From: a virus | Reading direction: 5' to 3' (one strand) | DNA: 37,242 bases | UHGV virus genome: UHGV-1405961 | In this document: positions 1 through 21,948 of the stretch, in pieces | How positions within the stretch are numbered: the stretch's first letter is position 1 | Layout of the letters: the number at the start of each line of letters is the position of its first letter | Made by a program: the position numbers and the translations under genes | Notes under the pieces: model-generated | Seen by the model: only the letters and a program-made list of their open reading frames with translations | Database searches by the model: none | Told to the model about the DNA's origin: nothing

Positions 1-152
1 CCTATCTCTTATCTGGAGATACAGCTACTGTCCGGTGTTTCAGGGGGCTACATCACTCCATTCGTGGGATATACAATCATGCTCAGTACATGGATAAGCG
101 CCGGGAAATGATGCAGTGGTGGGCTGACTGGATTGATGAGAAGGTGTCATAG
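1..152 (+). CDS. Partial CDS (3' end only, stop at 150-152); tail ...RGIYNHAQYMDKRREMMQWWADWIDEKVS resembles the C-terminus of P4-type tyrosine integrases
   Basis: Open frame runs from the window edge to TAG at 150-152, convergent with the tailspike gene. The MMQWWADWID tail and a Tyr in an R-x-x-Y context are recalled from P4-family integrase C-termini; not verified by search. Confidence 0.3.
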   Translation, partial: YLLSGDTATVRCFRGLHHSIRGIYNHAQYMDKRREMMQWWADWIDEKVS

Positions 153-240: not shown

Positions 241-2184
241 TTATGCTAGAGCCATTCTGGTATTTGCGAAAGCCATCGCCTCACTTTGTGATGCAAAACT
301 TGCAACAAAATAGTCAGCCAGATATAAAACACTCTCAGAAGAGGTGGTAACATATAACGACGCAGATTCTGATGCATCAGCCTGAGCCACTCCAAATGTA
401 CTGACCCATTCACCTTGCTTGAGATGAATACCACCCAAAGTGACCCCCCCTGTAATCCTCATATTCATATCACCTGAATTAAGTCTGGCATTGATACCCC
501 ACACATACCACAAGCCCTTGGTGATGGTGAAATTGGAGTCAGTTAATTCCAGAACAGCGTTAGCAGGGAATGTAAACGATTCGCAATTTTTTGAATGAAG
601 CCCCATACCTACTAAGGACCCTGTTACACTAGCATTCCCCCCCCATGTATGAGTTCCGCTATCAAAAGGTATTGCTGCTAACTTATTACCCGATGGAAGA
701 TTAAACAATCTACCTTTTGTAATAGAACCCCTCAAACACAGGTCAATGGTGTGAATCTTACCCGTCTGTGAAGCTATACTCTCAACAATAACATCTTTAC
801 CAGAAGAACCATTAAGATAAGTATCATAGGATTTAATAGTACTATCAGCATCTATCTCTATATTCTGATTTCCATCAGCATTATCGAAACGACAGCCATA
901 TGTTACAAGGTTTGACCGTTCTAATTTTATGCTGTTTATGTATGAATATTCAGCATAGAAAATGCTTGTGTCAATTAAATGTAAAGTTCTTGGTTCTATA
1001 GCAGCACCATCAACGTTTACTGCATCAGCGGTGGCTACAGCTTCAAACCAAACATTGGATATACCACATGGTGCAGATGGGCAATCCCCAGGCTTATTCT
1101 TAAGGTATATCCCCCCCCCTGCCGATCCTTCTATAATGGAGTCTTTTAACCACCAACCACCGATACCACCACCTGTAGATGATGCCCCTATCGTTGCATT
1201 CAGATAAACAGCATAAGTGCCAATACTGTTCATATGGAAGTTATACAGAGTGTCTGCTCCACAGTGCATCTCTGTACCACTGATGGCGTGATATCCCCAG
1301 TCACAATTGTTAATACCTATACTACGAAAAGTATTACCAATATTTCCAGAAGGTTTAGAAATTGCTTTATTAATGTGATGGATGTAGGTATCGCTTATAT
1401 TGTGACGACCCGAGTACTGGTCCGTAGGGTCATAACCAAAACCGACAGAACCAGTTGTACCGGTTCCGTCTATTTCAAAATTAGAACTATGCCTGAACTG
1501 CCAGTGCGGTGTTGATAATTTTGCCATCACGGCCGTTGAGAAATCACCCTGTGGTTTTATTACAACCGACCCCCCAACTCCTTTTAGTTGCGCATTACCT
1601 AGTGTTACATTCTCAGTATAAACACCAGGAGAAACCAGCAGGTCATTTTTTGGTAAAGAGGAATCTATGGCTTCTTGTAATGTTGAAAAATCTTTTGAAT
1701 GCCTAATATCATTAATATGATCAAGCAAAGTTCTTTCACCGCTACCTATATTCTTAGAGCCATCACTTGCTTGAAGGGCGGATCTGCTTTGCGCATCATC
1801 AACCAGATTCAAACCACCAGGAGCTGCGAGATCTTGCCTTAGTTGATCAGGGTCGTACTTAAGCACATTTGGATAATAAAACTGCTGCGCACCATACGCG
1901 TCATACACAGTCATAGAATGGCCTTGTACGGTAACAAACTTTGCAATTTGCCCGTTGTATACCGGATATCCAGCAGCGTTAATGATGATTGGTTGCGAAA
2001 CAGGAACGTGAGATCCGTCTTCGTTCTCCACATAAACCTGAATCTGGTTTTCAGGATTTACCGGGTCAGTGTCAATTTTACCGATATAAATTTTGCCATT
2101 GGCTACGGCTTTAAAAGAACGCGCCATAGTGAAGAGTTGCGAAGGCATACTCACTACAACATTGGCATTTATTGAATCTGTCAT
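241..2184 (-). CDS. Tailspike protein (P22 gp9-like N-terminal head-binding domain; divergent beta-helix receptor-binding domain)
   Basis: 647-aa ORF. First ~110 aa ([12 protein letters not shown]...[11 protein letters not shown]...[12 protein letters not shown]...NVLKYDPDQ) match the conserved P22-family head-binding domain; the remainder is Gly/Ser/Asn-rich, typical of a beta-helix. Last gene of the late operon; GGAG Shine-Dalgarno 8 nt upstream. Confidence 0.85.
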
Positions 2185-2240: not shown

Positions 2241-2265
2241 ATAAAAAAACCCAGCCGAAGCTGGG
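2241..2265 (-). terminator. Rho-independent terminator between ant and the tailspike gene
   Basis: Minus-strand hairpin CCCAGCTTCGGCTGGG followed by TTTTTTTA, 20 nt downstream of the ant stop. Confidence 0.6.
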
Positions 2266-2284
2266 TTGTCGCGTTGGTTATCTG

Positions 2285-3163
2285 TCAGTAGTTATGTACT
2301 GAAGGAGGTAATTCTTTATTCTTAAGTCTCATCCATGCGGAAAGATTCGCTGGTCCGTCTGGCTCATTGATATCAACATCTCGTGTGTGATTGATTAAAA
2401 CGTCTCTCGCCATTCCGATAACATACGAGAATTCATGACCGTAGTCGTAGCATCTGCCGGAATAGTTCGATTGAACTTGTTTTAATGCCGGATACAGTTC
2501 GCGGAATAATGCCTGTGAACGGTTAGCATAATCCCATAGCCATACAAGGCTGTTTGCTTCTTTTGCAGAAAGCTCGTTTGCTTTCTTCTCTTGTTTGCCG
2601 ATAAACTCGCCTTCAAGCACTACCCTGTGGATGTACTCTACGGCCAGCGGGATTTGTTCAATTGAAAGTTCATCAATGCTGTCAATACCAAAACGCTGAT
2701 GAACCATATTGTATGCATCGTCATAGCGAAGTCCTTTCTTTCCTACCAGCATGTTTACTGCATCGCGTAGCGGCGTTCTTTCCTCAACAGTGGTTTTCTT
2801 GCCTTTCACATACTCGCCATGTTTGCGAATTGAAGGTAGAACTTCTGCTGTTACCCACTTGCGGAATTTGTGCGGGACCGAACCTTTATTGACAGCATCG
2901 CGGCAGCGCAGAACCAATGTATACATACCTGATTCGCTAACAATGCTTAGATTCTGCTCACCACCAAGGGTGTAACTTAAAGTTACTCCCTTTTCATCGT
3001 CATCAAGTGCAGTAAGCGCCTTGCGTGAGTTAGTCAGGGTTAAAGCATCACAAACATCTTTTGCTACAAACCACGGCTCACCGCATTTGTTGATGACGCG
3101 GATTTCACTGTCGCCGAATTTGAAGATGGTGAAATCGTTTTGTGCCTTTGCTATACTTTTCAT
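2285..3163 (-). CDS. ant: Antirepressor Ant (Bro-N/KilA-N-like N-terminal domain), immI region
   Basis: ORF downstream of arc in a P22-type immI arrangement; motif [26 protein letters not shown]. Start set at ATG 3163 (292 aa); the ORF track extends to an upstream TTG at 3229. Confidence 0.7.
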
Positions 3164-3231
3164 GTCAATATTTCCTAATCCGATTTGTTGATACCGAAGC
3201 CCTGACTGTTCCCGCAGTTGGGGCTTCAACT

Positions 3232-3751: not shown

Positions 3752-4171
3752 TTAGTCTTGCTTTGTTGATGGTATAAGAGATGCGTTTGCCTCTTTTGGC
3801 TTCAAGGTATACATCCCACCATTAAAAGGATCTACAGCAAGCCAACCAATTAACCCACCAAACACAAGGTTTCCACCAATATACCAACCATTAGCATTGG
3901 CTTTGATTGGCAGGGTAACTGGTTCGTACCCATCCTTTTCCATAGTGATCTGGTAGCTCTTTTTGCCAAAATAACTACCATCTGACTTGGCAAGAGTTAC
4001 TCCTTGCGGGGTCTTGCCTTGCGCAACAATCACGCCTGATTCGTCTTTTACTTTAAAGCTCGCACCGGAAGGATTGCTGTTCACTTGCACGAGCTGTGTT
4101 TCGTCACCAACAATAGTTGCGCACCCAGATAACAATATAGCGCCAGCAACAACGCCGATAATCCTCTTCAT
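3752..4171 (-). CDS. Putative lipoprotein with PEGA-like domain (moron in the P22 sieA slot)
   Basis: 139 aa from ATG 4169-4171. Signal peptide with lipobox (MKRIIGVVAGAILLSGC); motif NPSGASFKV..GKTPQGVTL..YQITMEKDGYEPVTL resembles PEGA domains; Gly/Trp-rich C-terminus. Confidence 0.6.
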   Translation of the reverse strand: MKRIIGVVAGAILLSGCATIVGDETQLVQVNSNPSGASFKVKDESGVIVAQGKTPQGVTLAKSDGSYFGKKSYQITMEKDGYEPVTLPIKANANGWYIGGNLVFGGLIGWLAVDPFNGGMYTLKPKEANASLIPSTKQD

Positions 4172-4289
4172 ATCAATTTCCATATTTGAAAAAACCGGAA
4201 ACATCCTAATGACAAACCATTCAAATGTGAAGTAGGCAAAAGATGTTTACTTTTTTCATGGTATCCTGCTCAAAACTAAGGAGGTTGGT

Positions 4290-4613
4290 GTGTATACAAC
4301 AGTTATCGTGATAGCTATCGCACTCATTGTGGTTCAGTACCAACTGGCATCTTTAAAACAAAAGATATCTGACCTCAAGACTGAGAACGAAGCACTTAAA
4401 AACTCAATAAAAGATGAGAAGAACAAACTATCATTCACTATATCTGATATTGAGCAATCCATTGAAATTATTGAGAATAATATTAACAGACTAAAAAAAG
4501 AAGATATTCATGAAATCAATGACAATATCAAGGATTTGAAATCTTGGCTTAGGAATGTAGGACAAATCGCCACATCAACACGAGATAAGCTCAATCCATC
4601 CATGGATGATTAA
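4290..4613 (+). CDS. Hypothetical small membrane protein (N-terminal TM helix plus coiled coil), AT-rich moron
   Basis: GTG start 5 nt after AAGGAGG; 107 aa; hydrophobic N-terminus YTTVIVIAIALIVVQY then heptad-like K/E/N/I-rich sequence. Markedly AT-rich relative to flanks; divergent from the lipoprotein gene and convergent with the gp16-like gene. Confidence 0.55.
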   Translation: MYTTVIVIAIALIVVQYQLASLKQKISDLKTENEALKNSIKDEKNKLSFTISDIEQSIEIIENNINRLKKEDIHEINDNIKDLKSWLRNVGQIATSTRDKLNPSMDD

Positions 4614-6773
4614 TTACTCCTGTGCTATTCCGCTTAGCGACGCTACAATGCCAGCCCTCGCTAAGCGATTGAACTCTTCGTTTCCAACTGCATCACGTAT
4701 TGCTTTTACGGCGGCTTTATTTGCCATAAATCTGCGTTCCGCCGCCGCTAATGCTTCTTTACTTCCGCCAGCTCTTACTGCTTTCGTGGCTTCCTGAACT
4801 GCTTTCTCTATCGCATATCGACCGCTACGCGTGGTGGCAATTTTAGATACAGCACCTTTTAACCCGGCGCCAACTAAAGCACCTACGGCCGCGCCTGCAA
4901 TGCCCCCACCTGCTCCACCAACAATGGCACCCGACGTTGAGTTTGCAATTGCATTTAATACTGTTGAGGTAACGTTGGATAAACCAGCGTCAAGATCACG
5001 TAGAACATTGGCTGTTCTCCCTGTTCTTTCAATATACTGCTGAGGCTTCACTGCCGCTCTTGCAAGAGTGCCATATGCATCAGCAATTCTTCCAAGTTCT
5101 GAGGAATATCTGCTAATGGCTTTTACATTTTGTGGGGTAAGTATCCCTGCGATATGGTTAATTCCTGCTGCATCAGATTTGCCACCACGTACACCATGCG
5201 AGATAGCATCCTGCAACATTGATGATATAGCAGGAACACGCTCTGATTCTGGCAGCGCGCGGATCATAGAATGGAATCCAGCAGGACCATTAAGACCTTT
5301 AGCTGACGATGATTGAAGAGATTTTACTCCATTCGTAATCAGTGCATCTGTTGCCAAATCACGCCCAAAAACAGACTCTGCACTCTCTTGTGCGGATAGC
5401 CTCGCTTTAGACAGATCATTAGCTTTTTGCCAGTCATCAAGAAATCCGCCGTTTTCCGCCATTGTGCGCATATCATCAGTAATTGCCCGGCGTATTTCCC
5501 CTGCTCTCCTTGCCGCATTTGCCTCTCCGCTACGCTTATATTTTTGCTCAGCATCAGCAAATTTCGCTCTCCATGCTTTCATGCCATCAAATGTTACTCC
5601 ACCTTGATTGTTTGCCTGAACAAACTGTTTCATTTCAGGAGTAAGCGGTATGCCAGCAGATCGCTCTGCCTGAATAACGGCATTACCATTTAGCATTCTT
5701 GCTTTTTGATTTGGCATTGTTGACCGCACGTCATCCCATGCCGCGCGCTCGGCATCCTTCATCTGATCAAGATTTTGAAGAATCCTTTGTTTTATAGCCG
5801 CACTTTTTTCTGATGCCGTTCCAGATGCGGCCCCAAATTCATCAAGGTTTCGACTTAACTTTGATGATATTTCGTTAAATGCTGCCTGATGGGCATCCTG
5901 AACAATTCCTGGTGTTGATGCCAATGCGCCTTCGGCTTGTGCAATTCCACGACTTCCAGATCGCATTCCTGGTGTTAATGCGTTTATATCAATTCCAGCA
6001 GACTCAGCCGCTTTTGCTACATCTTCGGACACATTAGCGGCCTGACTGGCAATTGACTGACGCCCAGCACCTGACTTTGCCATCCTAGAAACATCATTAG
6101 CAGAATTCAGTGCTGCACCACCAAGAGCCTGTGAAACTCTTGGCGCAATAACGCGCCCGACACCTGAAAGAACGCCTTGAGCACCAATATTGATACCACC
6201 GTTAATGGCAGCATTTTGTGCAAAGTCGCCCTCCTGATTTGCAGCATCAGCAAGAGAACCTGCAATCATGTTTCCTGCGGAACCGATATCTCCAGCGAGC
6301 TTTGCTGTCGCTCCAACAGCTTTTGCCGCTGTGCCAATTGGCAGGAGATACCCACCAATTGTTTCACCGGCTTGTGCGTAAGGGTCTGTCGGTCGATCGA
6401 CAGGGCGATAAACATCATCCAAAACCTTGGGGCCACCAAGCCCCTGACTGATTGCATTAATCAGACTTGCGCCACCCTGCAATACGTCAAATGGTATGTT
6501 TACCAGACCACGACCAGCCTGTTCTGCAATTTGCCCTGCACTTTGACCACCAGTGAGCCAATCGCCAGCTTGTTGCATCAATGATGGTTCTTCTTTCTGC
6601 TGCTGAGGCGGAGGGTATGCTGCATAAAACTGATCTCTTGCTTCAGCCCATTTGTCACCAGCCTTAGGGGCAACAACCTCATCAAAATATTGCGCTTGAG
6701 CCTGTGCTTTCTGTTCTTCAGTTAACGCCTGATACTGTGGAGAGGCGATAACATCTTTCCATGCTTTAGCCAT
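4614..6773 (-). CDS. DNA ejection (internal virion) protein, P22 gp16-like
   Basis: 719-aa Ala/Gly/Gln-rich ORF, last of the gp7/gp20/gp16 trio by synteny; start overlaps the upstream stop. Confidence 0.65.
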
Positions 6774-8161
6774 TAATCACCCCATAGTGAAGAAAAGTTA
6801 CTGCTGGCTGCTGGCTGTGATACCTGTGTAGGTTGAGATTGCTGCCGCTGAGATTTACCAACATTAACGTTATATTGTTGGTTGTAATTGTTGGTGTATT
6901 CCTGAATCTCACGAATAGACTGCTGCATAGCCTCCGGGCTTGAATAGTCAACCTGCGGCATCCCCTGAAAATACATCTTCGCTTCTGCAACGGTGTTAAT
7001 ACCACTGGCACCCATGTCCCTTGCTGCCGCCACCCCCTGATTCTGCATTCTGCCCTGAATACGTTGTGCTGAGTTATATAACTGGCGCTGCTCTTTTCCT
7101 GTTAATCGGCTGCGAACATCAGCACCAATTGCTGGATTACCTGCACCGCCTGTCATTCCTGTCATGAAATCGAGAGCAGAAGCGTCTGCATTTGCGATCG
7201 CGTCGATATCCTTCTTCATGGCATAGTTTTGTGCTGATGCAGACGATGTTGCAGGAGCTGCGATTGAACTGGCAGGAACGCGAACCATATTCCCCTCGTT
7301 GTCGATGCCTTCGTAGAACGCATTAGCCCCAGCGCCGTGAAGTTTCCCGCCTACCGTTACAGTTCTGCCATCTGATAACTGAACTGTACGCTCATCATTC
7401 CCAGCGGTTCCTCTTGTTGACGCTCGCTGCATTGCCAAATCCTGCCCGCGTCGCGCAGTAGAAGCAGATAAGTCCTGACCGCGCATCGTGATGTTCTGGC
7501 CTCGTGCTGTTAGCGCCTCGCCAGCCTGATTGCTGCGGATTGTCTCTGCAAGTTTTCCGCGATCAATCTCACGACCAGCCATCTTGTCCTGAACATTGAA
7601 GTAATCAATCGGACCAAGAGCAGCCATTCCAAGGTGATCAACAAACTCACCAAATCCTGAAGGATTCTGCTGATACATCTGAGCAACGTTATTAGGGTCA
7701 ACACCGACGCGCGCCAGCTCATTGGCGTTGTTTTGCAGCCATGATTGCATTGCTTCTGGAGACGATGACGCAAGGCGTGCGCCAGCCGCTAAGGTGCCGA
7801 TAGAATTACGCTGATCTTCATCAATGAATCCCATGCCTTTACGAACGGATTCAATCTGGTCTGGATATTGAGTAGCCAACTGACGCAAAGCTCCGCGATC
7901 ACCAGACGCATAAGCATTAGCGTACGCCTGCTGAAATTCTTTCTGCCGCTGAGCCTGCTTTTCCTGCTGAAACACCCCTGCAATACCTGAAAGACCTTGC
8001 AAAGCAGTCAGCCCAACATTGTTAGCGCCTGAACGCTCAATATCATTGTTCTGCCTGATAAGCTGAAGCGTATTGCCGATGTCATTTACGCTCGGAGCGT
8101 TTGAGTTGACGCCGCCGATACCAGCTAACAATCCGCCATTTGATCCTTGCCAAGTAGCCAT
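6773..8161 (-). CDS. DNA ejection protein, P22 gp20-like
   Basis: 462-aa ORF (P22 gp20 is about 470 aa) in the conserved position between gp7 and gp16 homologs. Confidence 0.65.
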
Positions 8162-9321: not shown

Positions 9322-10022
9322 CAGTCAATCAGCCCATGTAATCTAAGTGCCGTTTCAAGCGCCAGAATACGCTGCCGAGCCTGCTGCAAACCTGTAGCGA
9401 GAGCCGCGACTTCGGATTGTGTGTACGTAGTGCCGACCGTGTATGACTGGTTAGCGTTGAATGAGCCAAGAAGAGGTGTACCTGTGGCTGCAGTCCATCC
9501 GGTATTTCTTGCTCCAACAACCTGAATTCCATCAACTGAATATGATGTTTTTACATCCAGCGGTGACGCAAGAGACTGCGATTCGGTTACGGTTTTCGAT
9601 ACGTAATCACTCTTAATGTCAGATACATCGCTTTCTACGCCATCCAGTCTTTTGTCAACAGTGACCAGATGCGCCTGAATATCGATAACCTCATCCAGCA
9701 AGTAATCAACATCGCTACGCAGTACGACTATCTTCCCTTCGGCAGTTGTTAACCTGACCTCAAGTAGATTTATCGCTTTTGTGTTTGCGGTGATTCTTGC
9801 GTCGTGGTCAGCCAGTTCGACGTCCTGTTCATCGTTTTTCACCTGAGCATCGTAAGCGCCCTGTCCGGCCTCGTTGGCCTTGTTAGCCACGTTACCAACA
9901 TCAGTGCCCTGTGCGATAACGTAAAGCAGATACGACTGCGAGAAGATATTGCGTGGAAGGACTGATGTGTCGAGCCGTGTAGCCTGAATGATTACCGGCA
10001 CATTGAGATTCGAATCCGCCAT
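9321..10022 (-). CDS. Tail needle (plug) protein, P22 gp26-like
   Basis: 233 aa; N-terminus [43 protein letters not shown] and C-terminus [31 protein letters not shown] recalled as P22 gp26-like; heptad-rich middle. Confidence 0.8.
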
Positions 10023-11440
10023 TACTCAATCCTTATCTGAGCGCCAGACAGAGTGACAGGTGACTTCGTGATAACGCGCAATTTGAAACCAATGTTTTTC
10101 CTGATGCGCCCTACTTTCTTCCACAAAACGCGTTTGTCGTAAACGAACGGTTCATTCTGCTCAATCATCTGCTCACGTCCGTAATTGATGCCGTCAGTGG
10201 TTGCCGATAGGAACAGGCGGTCAGCGTACTGCGCAACGCCAGTTGAAGATTCAACCTCAAAGTCGAAAACTCTGGCGTTATCCGCTTTGAACAACGGAGT
10301 AAACAGCAGGTGTTCCTGTTGCTTGTCGTACTGGCTGCTGATGTCGAACTGCAATTTCCCGGTCACGGATTCCAGCTTATCGCCGCACGTTATCTGATTG
10401 CCTTCGTAAATGAAGTCGATAGCGCGGTACACATCGTCATACAGGCCTGTTTTCAACACACACCATTGCGGACCATTGGCGCTTGAAGATGCGTCGTAAA
10501 CAAGAACATGGCGCGGCAGGTGAATAATCAGCAACTCATGAGCATCAAACCGCAACGATTCCATCACGCCATCAGCCAGTTCATCAGCAGTGTAGGAGCG
10601 TAGTATTTTCTCAATGCTCGCGCTGGCGATTGGTGATACCTGACCGGAGCCGATGATATATACAGACGGCGCACCTGTTGCCGGATTGCTGATGAACGCA
10701 TAAGAATCAGCGAATGGCGTTTTGCAGTAAGTCCCGGCAATGCCTTTCTGCACCATCAGCGATGGCTGTGCGACATACAGAGCAGCACCAACGGTGGTTG
10801 CACCAGTCAGGGAGAAATATTCAATCGTCGATGAACCAAAGCAGACGATGAAGTCTCGCCATGTTCCGATGCCGATGATGCCGTCAGGCTGCGATTCTGC
10901 GCGATATTGTGCGCTGTATCGGTCAGGATGTGATTCGTCTTCAAGGTCAGTGATAAACCATGAATCAGTTCCGTCTTTTGACCACGCATAACGCCCACGT
11001 AAGCGCGTAATGTCACGAACCGAACCTAACTCATACTGCGTAAAACCGCTGTCTGTAGGCCAGTTTGAGACGGTTTTAACCGTGCCATCATAGCGATACT
11101 CGACCAGTTGACCATTAACGCCTACTGCCTGTGATGTCCTACCGTGTGCCATTGATACGCGACCACTTCCGGCAACATCACCGACCTCGCTTTCTCCTTT
11201 GTACAGCTTGCCACCACATACGCGATAAACAGCATTCTGCGCCATGTTGTACTCGACGCCGCGCGATACGCCGTTTACATCAGAGCGTTTGGCAATGCCC
11301 GGGAATGAGCGAAGATATCCGCTGCTGTTGAGGATTTCTTTGGGTGTAGCCAGCATATTCACTGGCAGATAGTCGATATAGTCGGCGTTTCGAAAGTCTT
11401 TGCCGACACCTTTCATAAGCGGAAGTTGCTGAATCGGCAT
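10022..11440 (-). CDS. Tail accessory (head-completion) protein, P22 gp10-like
   Basis: 472-aa ORF, the same length as P22 gp10, in the syntenic position between gp4 and gp26 homologs. Confidence 0.7.
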
Positions 11441-11449
11441 TTATTCACC

Positions 11450-11911
11450 TCAAGTACTCGGATCATCTTTCTCGATGTAAAAGCGATTCCACGTAAACGC
11501 GCTTTTGTTACCACTACCGCGAGGCATGTCATTTCGCCGCTCAAGTGGTGGTATTTTGGTTAAAGCGATACAGATTGTCTGATATGCACTGTCAGCAGCG
11601 GTAAGGAGAGCGTCTGACGGCTGAATGACGTTATCCATGCACACTTGCACAGCGAGTTTCAAAGCTACGCCATCATTTGCCCATGCAGGGATACCTGAAT
11701 CATCGTCCGGTAACGGCATGATGCCGTTTTCTGTATCAGCAAACTGATACCCAAGCTCGATACCTTTAGCCTGCCATGCTGCCATCATGTCTTCGAGGTC
11801 ATTAATGGCATCTTCAATTGCCTGAGGGTCAGCATCTGTCAACGTGGCATTGGAATACAGCCCAGCTTTTCGTAAAGCCTTTAGAACTAGATCACCCTTC
11901 GTTTTCGCCAT
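11450..11911 (-). CDS. Tail accessory (head-completion) protein, P22 gp4-like
   Basis: 153-aa ORF immediately downstream of coat (synteny with P22 gene 4). Confidence 0.65.
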   Translation of the reverse strand: MAKTKGDLVLKALRKAGLYSNATLTDADPQAIEDAINDLEDMMAAWQAKGIELGYQFADTENGIMPLPDDDSGIPAWANDGVALKLAVQVCMDNVIQPSDALLTAADSAYQTICIALTKIPPLERRNDMPRGSGNKSAFTWNRFYIEKDDPST

Positions 11912-12080
11912 CTTCTTCCGCCTTAGCCACTTTTTGCTTCGTTGCGGTTTCTTCAGGAGTTTTTACCCAACCTTTTTTCAGGTGAGATTTAACTTCTTCG
12001 TCATCAACAATGATGTAATCGACAGCAAACTGACCACAGGCGATCATGTTGCCAGGCTTATAGAGCATTGTTCGTGCCAT
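11892..12080 (-). CDS. Hypothetical small protein between coat and gp4-like genes
   Basis: 62-aa ORF from ATG 12078-12080 (MARTMLYKPGNMIACGQFAVDYIIVDDEE...), preceded by GGGAGAAG and located just after the coat terminator. Confidence 0.4.
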   Translation of the reverse strand: MARTMLYKPGNMIACGQFAVDYIIVDDEEVKSHLKKGWVKTPEETATKQKVAKAEEDGENEG

Positions 12081-12090
12081 TGTCTTCTCC

Positions 12091-12114
12091 CAATAAAAAT
12101 GGGGCCGAAGCCCC
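12091..12114 (-). terminator. Rho-independent terminator downstream of the coat gene
   Basis: Minus-strand GGGGCTTCGGCCCC followed by ATTTTTATTG, 8 nt after the coat stop. Confidence 0.6.
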
Positions 12115-12121
12115 ACCAAAA

Positions 12122-13375
12122 TTACTGCCCGGCAATAACGATGCCAGTATATTCAGGAACAAGTACAGAGCAACCATACAGAGTGGTGAAACGAGCAGTG
12201 GTTACGCCTTTGATGTGGTCGAAGGCGTAAGACATGATCAGCGTAGCGCCCTGCTCGGTGGTTGCTGTCATTACCTGTGGACCCTGACCAGTCGGGAACG
12301 CCAGTTTGCCGTACATCAGCTCAACAGAACCATCAGCCCAGAACAGGTTAGCAGGTGCTGCGTTCTTGTTGAGAATGGTGATTGCTGCTGATGCTGCCGG
12401 TTTCGCATCGACGTTTGCATATGGACGACTCGCAACATCGGCATTTTCAACAGGGAGAATCTTTGGAGAGATTGTTACGGTAGTTCCGCTAACAGCCAGA
12501 ACACGGAATACCTGCGGTTGCCCGGTGGTATCTTTTGTGATCTGGTGTACGGAATTCACACCGGCAATGGTGAACGCATCACCAACCTGCAAGCCAGATG
12601 CAGATACCGTAATAGTCCCCTGTCGGTTATCAACTGGCATACCATTTGAATCTTTCGCTTCAACCTTGTGTTCAGGTTGGCCTGATACTGTCAAGGATTC
12701 AACGCTTCCTTTCGGTAATCGACCAGAAATATCGGTCTTGTAGCTATCAAAGGAAGCAACCGGAGGGATCTGCGCTTTTTCGTATGCTGTCAGGGTTGCG
12801 CCCTGAGCGTAGGCACGGTGACCAAGCTCGCCAGCAAGGTCTTTGTAGTTGAAGGGGTTCCAGAAAGAGCGACGGTTGATACCCTGAGGTACACCAATCG
12901 CCGTCATGGTGGCATCAATATCTGCCGCACCATTCCACAAGGCAAGGCCCCGTGAGCCATTTTCTGAGGCAGGAATTGCGACCACGTTAGCAGCACGCTG
13001 CGTAACCATGGAAATCAGGTCAGAGTCAATCTGTGCAGCAAGGCGCATACCTGCGGCGCGACCAGCTTCAGTTTTATGTTCCGGGTCACGCATTTCACGC
13101 GCATCCAGAGTGTACAGAATGTTTTTCGGCTCCTTGAACACAGAAGGAACAAGGCGCTGAACCAGTGCTGTTGGCGTTTTGCCGCTGAGGTCTAGGCCTT
13201 CCTCAATGTTCATGTGGTAATGCTGCGGACGATACAGAACATCACCTGCTCGCTGCATTGCTGTATCACCGGGACGGAATTTTTTAGCGTTACGGGAAAC
13301 TACGCAGGCGGCCTCAAAGCCTTCAACGTAGTTTTCGAACATGATTTCAAGGTCTTTTGCTAATTGGTTAGCCAT
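12122..13375 (-). CDS. Major capsid (coat) protein, P22 gp5-like
   Basis: 417-aa ORF between scaffold and gp4 homologs; C-terminal region (NLFWADGSVELMYG...) resembles the P22 coat as recalled; GGAG Shine-Dalgarno. Confidence 0.8.
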   Translation of the reverse strand: MANQLAKDLEIMFENYVEGFEAACVVSRNAKKFRPGDTAMQRAGDVLYRPQHYHMNIEEGLDLSGKTPTALVQRLVPSVFKEPKNILYTLDAREMRDPEHKTEAGRAAGMRLAAQIDSDLISMVTQRAANVVAIPASENGSRGLALWNGAADIDATMTAIGVPQGINRRSFWNPFNYKDLAGELGHRAYAQGATLTAYEKAQIPPVASFDSYKTDISGRLPKGSVESLTVSGQPEHKVEAKDSNGMPVDNRQGTITVSASGLQVGDAFTIAGVNSVHQITKDTTGQPQVFRVLAVSGTTVTISPKILPVENADVASRPYANVDAKPAASAAITILNKNAAPANLFWADGSVELMYGKLAFPTGQGPQVMTATTEQGATLIMSYAFDHIKGVTTARFTTLYGCSVLVPEYTGIVIAGQ

Positions 13376-14377: not shown

Positions 14378-16579
14378 TTACTGCTGTGGTTGTTGCTGAG
14401 TTGATTTTTGCAGGATGCTGCTGATGTCCATGCGCTGCGCATGGCCCTGTGCCTGACTTTTCAGGACAAGCTCTGCATCAGCACGGGCATTATCTCCTTG
14501 CTGTTGCTGGAACTGTCCGAGCAGTTTCAGAGCCTCGCGGATATCAGATTTCTGCTGACTATCGGCAGATGCGAGTATTTTCACAACATTTGCCGCTGCA
14601 ACCTGAGCATCAGTCTGTGCCTGGAATGCTTTAACCTGAATGGCTGCCTGTTCGTTCTGCGCTTTCTGCAATTCAGCCTGACCAGCAAGAAGCTGACCTT
14701 GCGCTGCAACCATAGCCGGATCTGGCTGACTGGCCTGTTGTTGTTTCGCCTGCTCAACCATCTGCTGTTCTTCTGGCGTTCTCGGCTTGATAACACCAGA
14801 CAGAAGCAACTGATTGCGGTTGTATTCTTTAAGGTCGTCCATCCCTTCGCCGTCCATATTGTCGAGAATCATCGACGATACAAGGTCGTGCTTCGGCGTT
14901 CCTGGTGGGATAAGTGCCAGCATGGAAAGTAACGACTTAACCGTTGCATCACGGCGAGTAGCGAACGACTGACCGACATCGACAGTCACTTCATAGTTAC
15001 CCTGCGAAAGGTCGTTAAGCGCGATAACCTGCCCTGTCTGACGGTCAACCACTTCACCAGTCATTAGCGCCACGTCATCGCTGCCGTCCTCATTAACGAT
15101 GCGCATCGGCGTATCACTGCCATAGACCTCACGCGCCATAGAAAGCCACACAACGCCAGCGCGACGCATGGATTTAGCCATGTTGTCCATGTAGATATAG
15201 GACTGCGTATCCATCCGGTTAAAGATGCTATCAACGGTATCGGTGGCGACGTTGCTCGGCATGTTCTCAAGCTGCGACGCACCTGTAATTTGCTGAATAG
15301 CCGTTCCGGTGTACTGCAATAGCCCGGCAAGAGCTGGAGGCATTTGTGTCGGAGGCGTATAACTGCTGACCTGAGCCTGCGCAGTAATATCTCCGTTTTT
15401 GTTTTTCAGACTGACCATCGGCAGGAACGCCGGGCGCTTTTTGTTGCGCTCCGCCCAATGAGTGGCGAGAGGACCAGGAATCATGTCAACATCAACTACA
15501 GGAATGCCATCACCGCCAGCCTGAGTAGCGTTATCTGCAATCATGGAAACCATCAGGTTCTCAAGACGCTGTGCATCCATCGCTTTTGCTGCGTGGCCTT
15601 CGATTCGCTCCTGATTATCAACAAATGAACGACGCCCATATACCGGGATGAGAGGAATATGTTCACCCGGAATACGCTTCGGTTCTTCCAGCCATTCAGC
15701 GCCAGACAGAAGACCGCAATAAACTCGGCGTTTCTTCACTGTCCGCTCGCCAATCAGTTCGAATGCGCCATCGGTCAGCTCGTCAACAATATCTTTGATT
15801 TGCTCTTCATCATAGATTGCCGTTTCTCCGCTGACAGGATTGCGCCACGCCGTGAGCTTCACCTTCTCTATGCGAACTTCGTAGTAGCGTCCAACATAGA
15901 TGGCATCAGGTGTTGACCAGTCATACTGAGTGCCAGTGTCATCACGAGGAAGACTTACCGCGATGGAATCAGGGTATTCAGCCTCGAACGCTTTAGGCGT
16001 CATGGAGAACATTTCCATAGCCCACATAGCATCAGAGCGGTCATATTGCTTGCTGTCCTGATCGAAGAAGACGCATGTCGCCGGGTCGTAAACAGGAAGA
16101 AGACTGATGCGTCGCTGCTCGTTACTCGGATCCATTTCATCTTCGTAATCGGCACACATGCGGAAACAACCGAATCCACCCGTTACGGCATCATCAAATG
16201 CGTTATCACACGCTTCGCCACCGGATGTTTCCTGATAGTCAGCGCGGAATTTGCCGTTCATTTTTTCGGCTAACGCTTCCGATGCCTTATCGTCCTTCGG
16301 CCTGAATTTAACGCTGATGCGATTCTGTCGATACTCGCCAATGATGCGATCACATTCACGGGCAATCTTATTCAGTTCAAAGCGCGGGTAATGCTCAAAC
16401 CTGCCTTCATCAAATGAGTAACCAGCGTTTGTGCTGCCTTCCCACTGTGCGCCGGATACCCGGACGAAACGTTGAGCCTCAATAATCTGCTCACGCATAT
16501 CCTGCGTTGCTGACCAGGCATTATCAAAGTTGCACAGCACCTTGCGATGCCAGTCAGTCATCTTTCTATCATCAGCCAT
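14378..16579 (-). CDS. Portal protein, P22 gp1-like
   Basis: 733 aa from ATG 16577-16579 ([10 protein letters not shown]...), overlapping the terminase stop; motif KKRRVY...GEHIPLIPVYG and a Gln-rich C-terminal barrel (QQASQPDPAMVAAQGQLLAGQAELQKAQNEQ) match the P22 portal as recalled. Confidence 0.85.
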   Translation of the reverse strand: MADDRKMTDWHRKVLCNFDNAWSATQDMREQIIEAQRFVRVSGAQWEGSTNAGYSFDEGRFEHYPRFELNKIARECDRIIGEYRQNRISVKFRPKDDKASEALAEKMNGKFRADYQETSGGEACDNAFDDAVTGGFGCFRMCADYEDEMDPSNEQRRISLLPVYDPATCVFFDQDSKQYDRSDAMWAMEMFSMTPKAFEAEYPDSIAVSLPRDDTGTQYDWSTPDAIYVGRYYEVRIEKVKLTAWRNPVSGETAIYDEEQIKDIVDELTDGAFELIGERTVKKRRVYCGLLSGAEWLEEPKRIPGEHIPLIPVYGRRSFVDNQERIEGHAAKAMDAQRLENLMVSMIADNATQAGGDGIPVVDVDMIPGPLATHWAERNKKRPAFLPMVSLKNKNGDITAQAQVSSYTPPTQMPPALAGLLQYTGTAIQQITGASQLENMPSNVATDTVDSIFNRMDTQSYIYMDNMAKSMRRAGVVWLSMAREVYGSDTPMRIVNEDGSDDVALMTGEVVDRQTGQVIALNDLSQGNYEVTVDVGQSFATRRDATVKSLLSMLALIPPGTPKHDLVSSMILDNMDGEGMDDLKEYNRNQLLLSGVIKPRTPEEQQMVEQAKQQQASQPDPAMVAAQGQLLAGQAELQKAQNEQAAIQVKAFQAQTDAQVAAANVVKILASADSQQKSDIREALKLLGQFQQQQGDNARADAELVLKSQAQGHAQRMDISSILQKSTQQQPQQ

Positions 16580-18075
16580 CATCCAACTCCGCAAGGTATG
16601 TTGTAGCTTGAGTAATCAATCTCTTTAGGATCTTTGATGTCTCGCATCTGTATTGCAAAACGCCTCATCATGTAGCCATAGCGAACAGCAGAAAGGATGT
16701 CGTCATTTAGCTTGACGATCTTCCCGTTCTCATCGCGGTGATACAGGCGAAACTCTTCAAAGAATGGCTCGCAGGTGTTAAATACCTTGAAACGACCGTC
16801 GAGCATCATGTCGCGTATCTCTGCTATCCCGGGTTCGACCGCATTACCTCCATCAGGCCATGTTGCATGATCTGGCAACATGTCGAACCCAGCGTCGGCG
16901 TATTGTTCCTTGAGCTGAGCGCCGCCTCCCTTTTCGTGCTGATGCCCGTCATGAGGCCAAGCCGTAGGGGTGTTTTTGCTCCATGCTTTAACAGCACTCC
17001 ATGCCTCTGTCGCCTTCTTCTGTTTGGCCTTCCAGACGCGAGAAAGATAAATCACGTCCTCGTCTTTATCCCACCAAAGCTGGATGTGTGCCTGTGGGTG
17101 ATCCCATCCGAAGTCCATTGCATTGATGACGTAGAAGTGATCAGGACACTCGAACGGCTGACACTTAATCGTCTCTTCCGGTATCTGGAAGATTCTACCG
17201 CTACCCATCGTAGGAATACCGCGAGCACGCGCCTCTCTCTCATGCTCGGGATAGGATGCGATGATTTGCTCTTTCTGCTCGTCGGTGTAGTGCTCAGCGT
17301 CATAGATGGTCATGTTGACCACTTTCTGCGACTTGCTGGGATTCTTCAGGAACTTGGTAACAACGTCAGACATCCCCATCAGCGGGGTAAACGTCAGAAT
17401 TGAGAATTGACCGTATTTGTTGGTACGGGTAAGCCCTTCGCTATAAATGCTGTATGGTGGCTCTTCGTCAAACCACACGCCGTGGATTGTGTCACCCTGC
17501 CAGCGAGCACGGCCTTGCGAGTATGGTTTGAAGTAGCAGATTGAAATGCCATCTTCAACGCCTTCAGCCGTGTGATGCTTAACCAGAAGATGATCAACAA
17601 GGTTCGGAAAGAAAGGAGACTTCTTCCAGCTAATGATGTCCTCTTTCGGTATGGAACCGTAGCCTGGCTCACCATTCTCTTCGATACGACCGCACAGGAT
17701 GCGTTGAGTCGTTTTGGTTACAGTCTCGTTTGTCTCGCCGCCAATCCAGAAGACAACAGGCTCATAGAAACGCTTACCTTTCCACTCACCGCCATATTTA
17801 CCATCAGCAGGATAGCCTTTTGTGCCCGGATAACGCCCGGTAAGGTGAAACGCGACTTCGGCAGCACCAGTAAATGACTTACCAAGCTGGTTACCAGCCA
17901 TAAAACAGCGCTCTGGATAGTCATGCCCGGCGTCGATGAACTCACGCTGTTTGCTGTATGGCGTAAATTCATATAGCAGGTGTGTGTTCCGGTAGTTCTC
18001 TTCTTCTTCGAGTAGCTCGAGCAATTCGATTTGCTCTTCGTCGCTCAGGTTATCAAGAATCGCGTCCAGTTCCAC
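16579..18075 (-). CDS. Terminase large subunit, P22 gp2-like
   Basis: 498 aa beginning [37 protein letters not shown] (recalled P22 gp2 N-terminus); overlaps the small-subunit gene by 23 nt. Confidence 0.85.
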
Positions 18076-19158: not shown

Positions 19159-19620
19159 TCATTTCAGGCACTGCGTGTTGATATATTCCTGCAAGTAGTT
19201 AACCTGCGCGGTTATCTTGTCGATTCCACTTCGGAGACGGTAATAATTGAGTTCAGCATCTGCTGTAAGTCTTGGGCTTTCTCCATCGCCCATGCTGCTG
19301 GCTCCGGTCGTTGACTTTGCACAGGTGGCGGCGACTTGCAGGCGCTTACGACCAGCAGAAACATCAGCACGGAGACTTTCGATAGTCGCGTTAGCATCAG
19401 CAAGCTCCTTTGTATATCTGGCATCGAGTTCTGCTACGTCACGTTGACGCTTCTGCATATCAGAGATCGTCGCCATAGCCGAATCTAATGCCATAGCGTT
19501 TTCGTCGCGCTGTTTTTTGTATTCAATGGCTTTATTGTGGTAATGATTAGCTGACCAGACGAGAGAACCGAATAAAGTCAGGAGGAAAGCAGAAATAACC
19601 AGCTTATAGCGAAGTTTCAT
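19159..19620 (-). CDS. Rz: Spanin, inner-membrane subunit (Rz)
   Basis: 153 aa from ATG 19618-19620; N-terminal TM helix ([17 protein letters not shown]), coiled coil, C-terminal YINTQC; lambda Rz-like and immediately downstream of R. Confidence 0.8.
   Translation of the reverse strand: MKLRYKLVISAFLLTLFGSLVWSANHYHNKAIEYKKQRDENAMALDSAMATISDMQKRQRDVAELDARYTKELADANATIESLRADVSAGRKRLQVAATCAKSTTGASSMGDGESPRLTADAELNYYRLRSGIDKITAQVNYLQEYINTQCLK
19212..19397 (-). CDS. Rz1: Spanin, outer-membrane lipoprotein subunit (Rz1), embedded in Rz in the +1 frame
   Basis: 61 aa, MLTRLSKVSVLMFLLVVSACKSPPPVQSQRPEPAAW...; lipobox and Pro-rich segment, fully nested within Rz. Confidence 0.7.
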   Translation of the reverse strand: MLTRLSKVSVLMFLLVVSACKSPPPVQSQRPEPAAWAMEKAQDLQQMLNSIITVSEVESTR

Positions 19621-20080
19621 TAACCACCCCGCCAGCTTCTTTGAATTTGGCAATCAGACTATCGATCTTGTGTTCATACTGACCGTAGCCAGCACCGGGC
19701 AATGAAGCCCAAATATTGCTGCAACGATCAATAGCCTGACGAATATCACCCCGATCAATCATCGGTAAAGCGCCACGTTCTTTAATCTGCTGCAATGCCA
19801 CTGCGTCCTGGCTTTTGGGGGAGAAGTCTTTCAGGCCAAGCTGCTTACGATAGGAATCCCACCAACGGGAAAGAAGCTGGTAGCGCCCGGCGGCTGTTGA
19901 TTTGAGTTTGGGGTTTAGCGTGACAAGTTTGCGAGGGTGATCGGAGTAATCAGTGAATAGCTCTCCGCCAACAATGACGTCATAACCATGATTTCTGGTT
20001 TTCTGACGTCCGTCATCAGTTCCCTCTGACCACGCCAGCATATCGAGGAACGCCTTACGTTGATTATTGATTTCCACCAT
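19604..20080 (-). CDS. R: Endolysin (lambda R-type lytic transglycosylase)
   Basis: 158 aa, [61 protein letters not shown]...; near-identical to lambda R as recalled. Confidence 0.9.
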
Positions 20081-20387
20081 CTTCTACTCCGGCTTTTTTA
20101 GCAGCGAAGCGTTTGATAAGCGAACCAATCGAGTCAGTACCGATGTAGCCGATGAACACGCTCGTTATATAAGCGAGATTGCTACTTAGTCCGGCGAAGT
20201 CGAGAAGGTCACGAATGAACCAGGCGATAATGGCGCACATCGTTGCGTCGATTACTGTTTTTGTAAACGCACCGCCATTATATCTGCCGCGAAGGTACGC
20301 CATTGCAAACGCAAGGATTGCCCCGATGCCTTGTTCCTTTGCCGCGAGAATGGCGGCTAACAGGTCATGTTTTTCTGGCATCTTCAT
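20064..20387 (-). CDS. S: Holin (lambda S-type, class I) with dual-start MKM motif
   Basis: 107 aa, [67 protein letters not shown]...; near-identical to lambda S as recalled. The upstream DNA is also lambda-like. Confidence 0.9.
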
Positions 20388-20825
20388 GTCTTACCCCCAA
20401 TAAGGGGATTTGCTCTATTTAATTAGGAATAAGGTCGATTACTGATAGAACAAATCCAGGCTACTGTGTTTAGTAATCAGATTTGTTCGTGACCGATATG
20501 CACGAGCAAAACGGCAGGAGGTTGTTAGCGCAACCTCTTGCTACCCGCTTTCACGAAGGTCATGTGTAGAAGTCCGCAGCGTAACTATCACCGATGAATT
20601 CATGATAGCCAGTGGCTACGGCTCAGTTTGGATTGTGGCGACCGGTGCTGATCTCCGGTTTGCTGCAACTGCCTACAGCGGGCTACGTGGCCACACCGAA
20701 TCCAGCGAAAGATTCTTGCCCTTACACATCAGCCTGTGCATTCACCACAACGATAAGAGCACTGCGCGGCACCTTTCACCAATTCCGCGAGGTCTGCGGG
20801 TTCAATGCTCTTACCTGTTGTGCAA

Positions 20826-20908
20826 ATAAAAAAGCCACCGTTGCAACTTAAGAGTCACTAACGGCAGCTTACCTTCTAATTATGGCTAAATGGCTAATTG
20901 CATGTCAA
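20826..20908 (-). promoter_or_regulatory. Late promoter pR' (-35 TTGACA, -10 CATAAT, 18-bp spacer) with an immediately following short terminated leader (tR'-like)
   Basis: Minus strand reads TTGACA-N18-CATAAT (plus 20903-20908 and 20879-20884), then hairpin CCGTT...AACGG with palindromic GTTGCAAC and a U-run from plus AAAAAA 20826-20832. The -35 lies inside the 3' end of Q. Confidence 0.5.
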
Positions 20909-21404
20909 GGCTTTTAACAGCAACATGCTTAACTTTCTCAACACGTTTACGCATTTTGAAAGCATTTTGCATCGGCTGGTATAAAACAAATAATGACGCT
21001 TTCAGGATGTCGTCAATTTCGTTTCTACAGGTTGCCAGTGAAGGTTTTCTCCATCCCTCGCCACCACGTCCACACATCTTGCGTTGCTTTGCAGTCGCGT
21101 GATAGTAGGATGCAATTGCTCGCTTAGATGAACCATGAGCGTAGTAGCTGAGGAGGATGCTAAAGGCTTTCTTGTCAATGTACATGACGGAATCGACGAC
21201 CTGAGAAATCAACATTCCATCATCATCATTACACATTGGCCTTGTCATAACTCTTCCCGGCTCTACGCTCTCCATGAACTTCGCTATTACGCTGCTCATG
21301 CGCTTTTCCAGGCGGCCTGAATAAACCCATGCGCCCCACAGTTCAAGCCAGCCATTCAGCCAATCGTGCTGTTCTTTGGTGAGGTTTAGTTCTCTTATGC
21401 TCAT
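20886..21404 (-). CDS. Q: Late-gene antiterminator Q (Q933W/Q82-like family)
   Basis: 172 aa; WGAW...RPMCNDDDGMLIS...LLSYYAHG pattern resembles the short Q antiterminators of Stx-type lambdoid phages; located between ninH and pR'/S. Confidence 0.7.
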   Translation of the reverse strand: MSIRELNLTKEQHDWLNGWLELWGAWVYSGRLEKRMSSVIAKFMESVEPGRVMTRPMCNDDDGMLISQVVDSVMYIDKKAFSILLSYYAHGSSKRAIASYYHATAKQRKMCGRGGEGWRKPSLATCRNEIDDILKASLFVLYQPMQNAFKMRKRVEKVKHVAVKSLDMQLAI

Positions 21405-21589
21405 CGTCTTCCCCTCTTGCCCTGTTTGACCATCAGGACGCCGTTAACTATTACGTGACGCTCGCCTTTGCTGTCTCGGTTGTACTTGAGCACTGTTCCT
21501 CTTGCGCAGGAAAGCATCCTTGCCACTTCGGTCTGATTGCCTCGTGTCTGGATAAGAAGCTCTGGTATCGTTTGAATTGTGGCGTTCAT
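21401..21589 (-). CDS. ninH: NinH
   Basis: 62 aa; TIPELLIQTRGNQTEVARMLSCARGTVLKYNRDSKGERHVIVNGVLMV matches lambda NinH as recalled; overlaps Q start and rusA stop. Confidence 0.75.
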   Translation of the reverse strand: MNATIQTIPELLIQTRGNQTEVARMLSCARGTVLKYNRDSKGERHVIVNGVLMVKQGKRGRR

Positions 21590-21948
21590 ACGCTCTCCAG
21601 TTCGGTGATTTTTATTCCAAGCCTTCCGCCTGGTACTTTCACGCCACGAATTACGCGAATGTCATCGAATTGCTCGTCGTCTTCCGCAAATCCGGCGTGG
21701 ATAAGGGAGTCGAGTAAACCTTTCAGGATGTTGTCGAGGTCGCGGCGGCGGGAGTCTGGAACGTCTGCGATGACTTTGATGCGGAGTCGTGATTTGGTGA
21801 AAATGTCTAACTTAAGTTGGCGGATGATTTGCTGAACGTCTTTTCGGTATTTCTGGCCTTTATCGCTGATGTAGTATCGACTCCCCCGTCTTCGCCAGTA
21901 GGTATTCAGCGACGGCGGGTATGGAAGCACAAACTGATATTCGTTCAT
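21586..21948 (-). CDS. rusA: Holliday-junction resolvase RusA
   Basis: 120 aa; LPYPPSLNTYWRRRG...DVPDSRRRDLDNILKGLLDSLIHAGFAEDDEQ matches the RusA family. Confidence 0.85.
   Translation of the reverse strand: MNEYQFVLPYPPSLNTYWRRRGSRYYISDKGQKYRKDVQQIIRQLKLDIFTKSRLRIKVIADVPDSRRRDLDNILKGLLDSLIHAGFAEDDEQFDDIRVIRGVKVPGGRLGIKITELESV

Follow-up and report, generated by a model that had tools for sequence, protein, structure and literature searches.

A P22-like tailspike gene that joins a conserved head-binding anchor to a receptor-binding domain shared with virulent siphoviruses

The viral sequence UHGV-1405961 (37,242 nucleotides, referred to as a whole as the window) carries a mosaic tailspike gene on its minus strand, at positions 241..2184; a sequence-only reading of the same DNA had given these coordinates without stating the strand. 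The gene encodes 647 amino acids plus a stop codon and was identified as the equivalent of P22 gene 9 from the list of open reading frames (ORFs), the Pfam family PF09008, the PHROG assignment, and the gene order. The protein is probably the tailspike of a P22-like temperate podovirus of the Lederbergvirus type, residing in E. coli as a prophage, in which an exchangeable cassette that binds, and most likely cleaves, O-antigen is carried on a P22 anchor. Tailspike receptor domains set the host range of phages and have applications as antivirulence enzymes and as reagents with serotype specificity. Since mosaicism itself is a well-documented way for phages to change host range, what the present gene adds is modest: a probable O25-type specificity with kinship to phage LM33_P1 and signs of a very recent exchange with a virulent siphovirus.

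The combination of a P22-type head-binding domain with an unrelated receptor domain, as proposed in the sequence-only reading, is borne out by Pfam, by the PDB, and by the point at which similarity to HK620 breaks off. Residues 1-116 (positions 1837..2184, minus strand) form the P22-family head-binding (particle-attachment) domain. Head_binding (PF09008) covers residues 4-114 with an E-value of 5.3e-65 and was the only family found in a Pfam scan of the 647-residue protein. Sequence matches in the PDB include Sf6 gp14 over residues 1-119 (E-value 6.6e-64) and P22 gp9 (E-value 1e-47); together with those to related chains, they all stop at query residue 116-120. HK620 gp9 is ~97% identical over residues 1-115 (BLASTP), and this identity collapses directly after the motif KYDPDQ. 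At the DNA level, matches to P22-like phages (HK620, E212, EC.P3, CUS-3, Sf6, and others) are limited to nucleotides 1 to ~345 of the gene. Because the PDB and HK620 matches end at residues 116-120 and the DNA matches at nucleotide ~345, the domain border at residue 116/117 is real and sharp, lying slightly later than the ~110-115 originally suggested. For the C-terminal 530 residues no sequence match was found in the PDB, whether the query was the protein alone or a profile of 50 sequences. This part had been described as Gly/Ser/Asn-rich, which holds for glycine (11.3%) and serine (10.9%) but not for asparagine (6.6%, compared with 7.8% in the N-terminal domain).

The spikes of the Lederbergvirus phages HK620 (gp9), Sf6 (gp14), and P22 (gp9) have the same head-binding domain, the same gene position, and the same break point after KYDPDQ, and the N-terminal domain shows 85-89% identity to Sf6 and 71-74% to P22 in Foldseek alignments. 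They also share the overall plan of anchor, neck, β-helix, and C-terminal β domain. After residue 116, however, sequence similarity is no longer detectable and the resemblance is at fold level only (~10-12% identity in structural alignments). The substrates of these spikes are the E. coli O18A1 (HK620), S. flexneri Y (Sf6), and Salmonella O:4/O:9/O:1 (P22) polysaccharides. As no sequence similarity extends past residue 116, these substrates are uninformative for the present protein.

Residues 117-180 (positions 1645..1836, minus strand) constitute, according to alignment and model, a linker or neck with short helices, at whose start the 5′ recombination junction is located. The neck motif LRxDLA...G..LV...DG(A/S)KxIGSGxR opens the cassette and is, in the alignment of 50 homologues, common to tailspikes with non-P22 anchors. 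Every P22-anchored member of this family alignment joins the cassette between KYDPDQ and LR, so that three receptor-domain clades are attached at exactly the same position. Moreover, the anchor DNA is present in 1,122 of 5,426 complete E. coli genomes, but the receptor domain in only 2 of them, even with sensitive blastn. Because three clades join there and the two parts differ so widely in distribution, the KYDPDQ junction behaves as a recombination point, in agreement with what had been expected of it from the sequence.

The receptor domain had also been called divergent. It does differ from the domains of P22-like spikes, but it has relatives of 88-92% amino acid identity in virulent siphoviruses and of 57-61% in LM33_P1 and ES17. 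No end-to-end match to the tailspike, characterized or otherwise, was found among 50,697 phage records or in the PDB. Among named phages, the closest relative is the annotated tailspike of vB_EcoS_fFiEco03, a virulent siphovirus (Kagunavirus; MT711524, QNO11669.1), with 89.4% DNA identity over gene nucleotides 421-1932 (megablast) and ~92% protein identity from residue 141 to the end. When the C-terminal part was used as a tblastn query against the phage records, 42 of them matched. These include fFiEco03 (87.7% amino acid identity over the whole query); the T7-like Kayfunavirus phages LM33_P1, 101118UKE1, 22664BS1, 101136BS1, and HC12/13 (~61%); the Kagunavirus phages Golestan, phiEc3/4, 22664BS2, and SCS44 (~60-61%); the 69-76-kb podoviruses ES17, myPSH1131, and myPSH2311 (57%); the 48-kb phages ES and AN_ECEAS (48%); the ~72-kb phages Bp4 and PD38 (38%); and the Pseudoalteromonas phage pYD6-A (29%). 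The 57-61% relatives (the LM33_P1/ES17/Golestan family) align over 97-100% of the receptor domain. Residues 116-647, used as a 532-residue query, match phrog_27367 (“tail fiber protein”) over query residues 16-531 with an E-value of 4.5e-218. A 59%-identical copy also occurs at 15791-16990 of MZ417522.1, labeled “Mycolicibacterium phage J1” (24,953 bp), a record whose host label or assembly looks doubtful.

In a collection of 5.8 billion proteins, 72 relatives were found. The N-terminus ahead of the receptor domain, recorded for a sample of 50 sequences, was the P22 head-binding domain in 15 cases, PF18668 (TSP1/Gp66-type) in 21, and the T7 tail-fibre N-domain (PF03906) plus PF18668 in 1; the remainder had no recognized domain. 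Among the relatives at 83-92%, the genome contexts of P0009 and P0005 represent two further siphovirus backbones besides Kagunavirus. No relative was found in the GTDB species-representative genomes scanned, and IMG/VR contained only Kagunavirus-type relatives at 61-62%. A sister P22-anchored clade (P0020) carries a domain that is 80% identical to the LM33-like one; a link from this clade to a host serotype was sought, but its DNA was found in none of the 5,426 complete E. coli genomes.

The same receptor domain is found on different anchors. The fFiEco03 tailspike has a closely related receptor domain (~92%) but a siphovirus baseplate-adaptor anchor without PF09008, and fFiEco03 itself is virulent, its tail being long and non-contractile, unlike the P22-like phage of the window. 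LM33_P1 Gp17 and the tailspikes of Golestan, phiEc3, and 22664BS2 are ~61% identical over the whole receptor domain, belong to the same PHROG family, and have the same neck motif; the anchors in this group are either T7-type (PF03906) with PF18668 or Kagunavirus-type. The tail fibre of ES17 (MN508615.2, 11562-13136) is 57% identical over the receptor domain and is the best structural match in BFVD (template modeling (TM) score 0.74), but it is 1,021 residues long and has a long unrelated N-terminus. ES17, a phage of ST131, is a podovirus of ~75 kb in the genus Kuravirus.

The gene also carries traces of exchange between temperate and virulent phages, as seen in a profile of allele identity in 150-nucleotide intervals, the last of which ends at nucleotide 1800. 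The lysogen PSJ-07 has a P22-like prophage inserted between sbcB and dacD, and its intact copy of the gene (95.5% amino acid identity) is 100% identical in DNA to the window allele across the junction (nucleotides 301-900); the two alleles therefore descend from one fusion event. Over nucleotides 751-1800, the PSJ-07 prophage gene (20001-21944 of its locus) is 99-100% identical to that of the virulent fFiEco03 (5533-7524), and the window allele is 86-99% identical to fFiEco03 in this range. An allele in a Citrobacter context (P0008) shows 100% identity with the window over nucleotides 301-450 and 62-94% elsewhere. Because the profile differs by stretch among these four alleles, the receptor domain is itself a patchwork that continues to pass between virulent siphoviruses and temperate podoviruses. 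The near-identity of the PSJ-07 and fFiEco03 genes indicates that one such exchange, linking a lytic siphovirus with a temperate podovirus, was very recent, and near-identical receptor DNA in a prophage and a virulent siphovirus is a clean example of ongoing flow across lifestyles and morphotypes. Exchange of this kind is known from earlier work on E. coli phages, among them Lederberg-, Kaguna-, and Kayfunaviruses (PMC10408124). The source of PSJ-07 was human faeces from Ecuador, and fFiEco03 is a Finnish Kagunavirus. An 82%-identical P22-anchored copy (10001-11941 of its locus) lies in a Citrobacter-like chromosome, with bioA/bioB and the hut operon as neighbours; one source names Citrobacter freundii as the host. 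The cassette thus also occurs outside E. coli.

The architecture of the receptor part was modeled with AlphaFold2 as a monomer, based on the 50-sequence alignment. The mean predicted local distance difference test (pLDDT) value is 84.8 and exceeds 90 for nearly all of residues 160-647. The N-terminal domain is of low confidence (pLDDT 33-85), presumably due to the trimeric dome of the solved structures being modeled as a monomer. Helices were predicted at residues 112-120, 134-138, 142-145, 153-157, and 169-175. They are followed at residues ~181-500 (positions 685..1644, minus strand) by a long run of short strands predicted to form a right-handed parallel β-helix, as looked for in a P22-like tailspike; this is the presumed polysaccharide-binding and catalytic domain. 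Residues ~501-647 (positions 244..684, minus strand; approximate boundaries) are all-β in the model (pLDDT 93-98) and would form a C-terminal β-sandwich. Foldseek returned a match to CBM22 xylan-binding modules (160 columns, TM score 0.60 on the target, E-value 1e-4), which is assigned here to the β-sandwich, although the aligned query residues are not stated. Overall, the predicted fold is that of a classical tailspike depolymerase with no close solved structure.

Several acidic residues in the β-helix are candidates for the active site. D348, E381, and D434 are invariant in the 50 homologues, and D311, E352, and E412 are nearly so. D348 and E381 are 33 residues apart, and the same spacing separates the catalytic acid pairs of HK620 (D339/E372), Sf6 (E366/D399), and P22 (E359/D392). 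D348/E381 was chosen as the candidate catalytic pair because of this matching distance. The infection step may then be envisaged as follows. Through residues 1-116, the spike, presumably a trimer, would attach to the tail hub of the virion. The cassette (residues 117-647) was joined to this anchor by recombination immediately after KYDPDQ. The β-helix would bind the surface polysaccharide of the host, most likely the O-antigen of the lipopolysaccharide, and the acid pair (D348 and E381 being the candidates) would hydrolyze it, so that the virion could advance through it to the outer membrane. Among virulent siphoviruses the same cassette circulates as well, with more diverged forms in T7-like and other podoviruses.

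Which O-antigen may be recognized is suggested by the PSJ-07 lysogen. Its O-antigen cluster contains O25-family wzx and wzy together with fnlA-wbjC-wecB genes and is of the O25(a) type. Its glycosyltransferase shows 100% identity to the enzyme of strains designated O25:H16, O25:NM, and O25:H1, and at an identity of at least 99% this allele is found in only 35 of 5,426 complete E. coli genomes. The repeat units of O25a and O25b differ mainly in one backbone sugar (N-acetyl-L-fucosamine versus O-acetylated L-rhamnose) and contain no uronic acid, which would fit a hydrolase rather than a lyase. LM33_P1, from the work of Dufour et al. in 2016, is reportedly directed at ST131-O25b:H4. Within the 61% clade, O25b-positive strains served as isolation hosts for four phages (PMC8614997, Table 1), and specificity in this group is known at the level of phage or host. 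Based on the one intact lysogen and the family resemblance to these O25b-associated phages, the specificity of the window clade is most plausibly an O25-type O-antigen, perhaps O25a. The prediction of a distinct O-antigen or capsule specificity made in the sequence-only reading is thus a reasonable one. The 14 serogroup subtypes validated in PMC10408124 do not include O25, and an O25(a)-specific tailspike would extend the map that links E. coli tailspikes to serogroups. It would also provide a 61%-identical comparator for the enzymes of O25b-associated ST131 phages. Judged from the sequences, the 39% of residues that differ from the LM33_P1 group may be enough for a changed sub-specificity (e.g., O25a versus O25b). 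We therefore put forward, as a tentative and rather doubtful proposal, that the clade is the O25a-specific counterpart of the O25b-associated LM33_P1-type depolymerase and moves nearly unchanged between temperate P22-like prophages and virulent siphoviruses. If true, this would amount to a natural matched enzyme pair discriminating O25a from O25b and to a documented recent transfer across lifestyles.

The second of the two complete genomes with this domain, the lysogen ET734, has its tailspike copy split by IS1 and IS3 insertion sequence (IS) elements, beside a pseudogenized intS at argW. In PSJ-07 the O25-family polymerase gene wzy is frameshifted (20448-21510 of the cluster locus), and in ET734 the gene of the chain-length regulator wzzB has an internal stop (11535-12512 of the cluster locus). 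The damaged O-antigen genes in both lysogens could reflect selection for an altered O-antigen under phage pressure. That PSJ-07 and ET734 are one clone with a switched O-antigen was considered and rejected, as identity between their his regions is only 97.9% and the two prophages occupy different sites.

Several points weigh against an O25-type, O-antigen-cleaving tailspike. The structure behind this reading is a predicted monomer. The O-antigen cluster of ET734 belongs to the O96 family, though in this strain two IS elements interrupt the tailspike and the integrase has been pseudogenized. The 82%-identical copy next to the hut operon is in a Citrobacter-like chromosome. The host serotype of fFiEco03 was not found in the literature searched, nor was any paper mentioning this phage. 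Finally, the homologous fibre of ES17 (57%), which was modeled on the K5 lyase, was reported to bind mammalian heparan sulfate (PMC7885116), so that a capsule-like or non-O-antigen ligand is conceivable.

The ES17 result leads to the question whether the target could instead be a capsule or another exopolysaccharide (a K antigen, colanic acid, or a heparosan-like polymer), possibly attacked by lyase action. We regard this as unlikely. The hosts of the relatives in the 61% clade are of the O25b type, the copy in the O96 lysogen ET734 is a pseudogene, and the characterized P22-like spikes of E. coli, Shigella, and Salmonella are O-antigen enzymes, the K1 endosialidase of CUS-3 being the exception. 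A fold similarity at ≤16% identity cannot separate hydrolase from lyase. Furthermore, the tailspike type of prophages tracks the O type of the host (PMC10408124). Even if the ligand is O-antigen, the domain might only bind or modify it (e.g., as an esterase or deacetylase) and leave the backbone uncleaved. This is quite improbable given the conserved acids D348, E381, E412, and D434, whose spacing of 31-33 residues suggests successive rungs of the β-helix. Podovirus tailspikes moreover need a path cleared through the O-antigen, and to our knowledge essentially all P22-type spikes that have been studied are endoglycosidases, which further favors a cleaving enzyme.

It may also be asked whether the prophage is defective and the gene a decaying relic that has ceased to encode a functional tailspike, as an IS3-family end truncates the neighbouring integrase at window nucleotide 55/56 and the ET734 copy is itself broken by IS1 and IS3. 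This appears very improbable, since the 647-codon ORF is intact, starts with ATG, and is preceded by a good ribosome-binding site (GGAG, 8-9 nucleotides before the ATG). The identical protein was found on an independent contig, and a 98% relative is the representative of a cluster with 53 member sequences. All family-invariant residues are present as well, in columns defined on an alignment that includes this sequence. The IS boundary, for its part, may be a mere assembly break. The IS3-family end itself occupies positions 1..55, 54 of its 55 nucleotides being the same as the flank of the IS3 transposase that interrupts the ET734 tailspike. Its position abutting the integrase means either that the integrase is disrupted or that the contig broke at the repeat.

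The surroundings of the gene are those of a P22-like prophage. The gene order gp16, Mnt/Arc, Ant, tailspike, int, read from the window ORFs and from identical contigs, is as in P22-like prophages, and the tailspike follows the immI region (mnt/arc/ant) where the late region ends. Across 62% of its first 25 kb, the window shares 95% identity with CUS-3. Upstream of the tailspike lies the antirepressor gene (Ant; positions 2285..3229, minus strand, from the ORF list); in a contig with an arrangement identical to that of the window, Ant has the domains Bro-N and P22_AR_C. Between ant and the tailspike start codon, a terminator scan revealed a terminator-like hairpin with a T-run (positions 2248..2267, minus strand), which has the same relative position as the annotated tANT of HK620 and is the positional equivalent of tANT in P22 and HK620. 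Convergent with the tailspike are the last 31 codons of an IntS-type integrase (positions 57..152, plus strand), identified by a translation match: the sequence is identical to the C-terminus of the integrase beside the 98% tailspike allele (P0001) at the argW/yfdC site. No seroconversion genes (gtr, oac) were found beside the tailspike in the window, where the 240 nucleotides downstream hold only the integrase 3′ end and the IS end.

PSJ-07 (19404-19913 of its locus) and ET734 (5345-5833) both have an HNH endonuclease gene, on the opposite strand, in the interval from ant to the tailspike. The window lacks this gene, and its ant and tailspike are separated by only ~100 nucleotides. Between gp16 and the Mnt/Arc region, the window contains an ORF of 150 amino acids (positions 3752-4204, minus strand) with a lipoprotein-like signal (MKRIIGVVAGAILLSGC...), which may be a moron or a superinfection-exclusion gene. 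It is adjoined by a stretch of low guanine-cytosine content (33% versus ~44%) at window positions 4200-4650.
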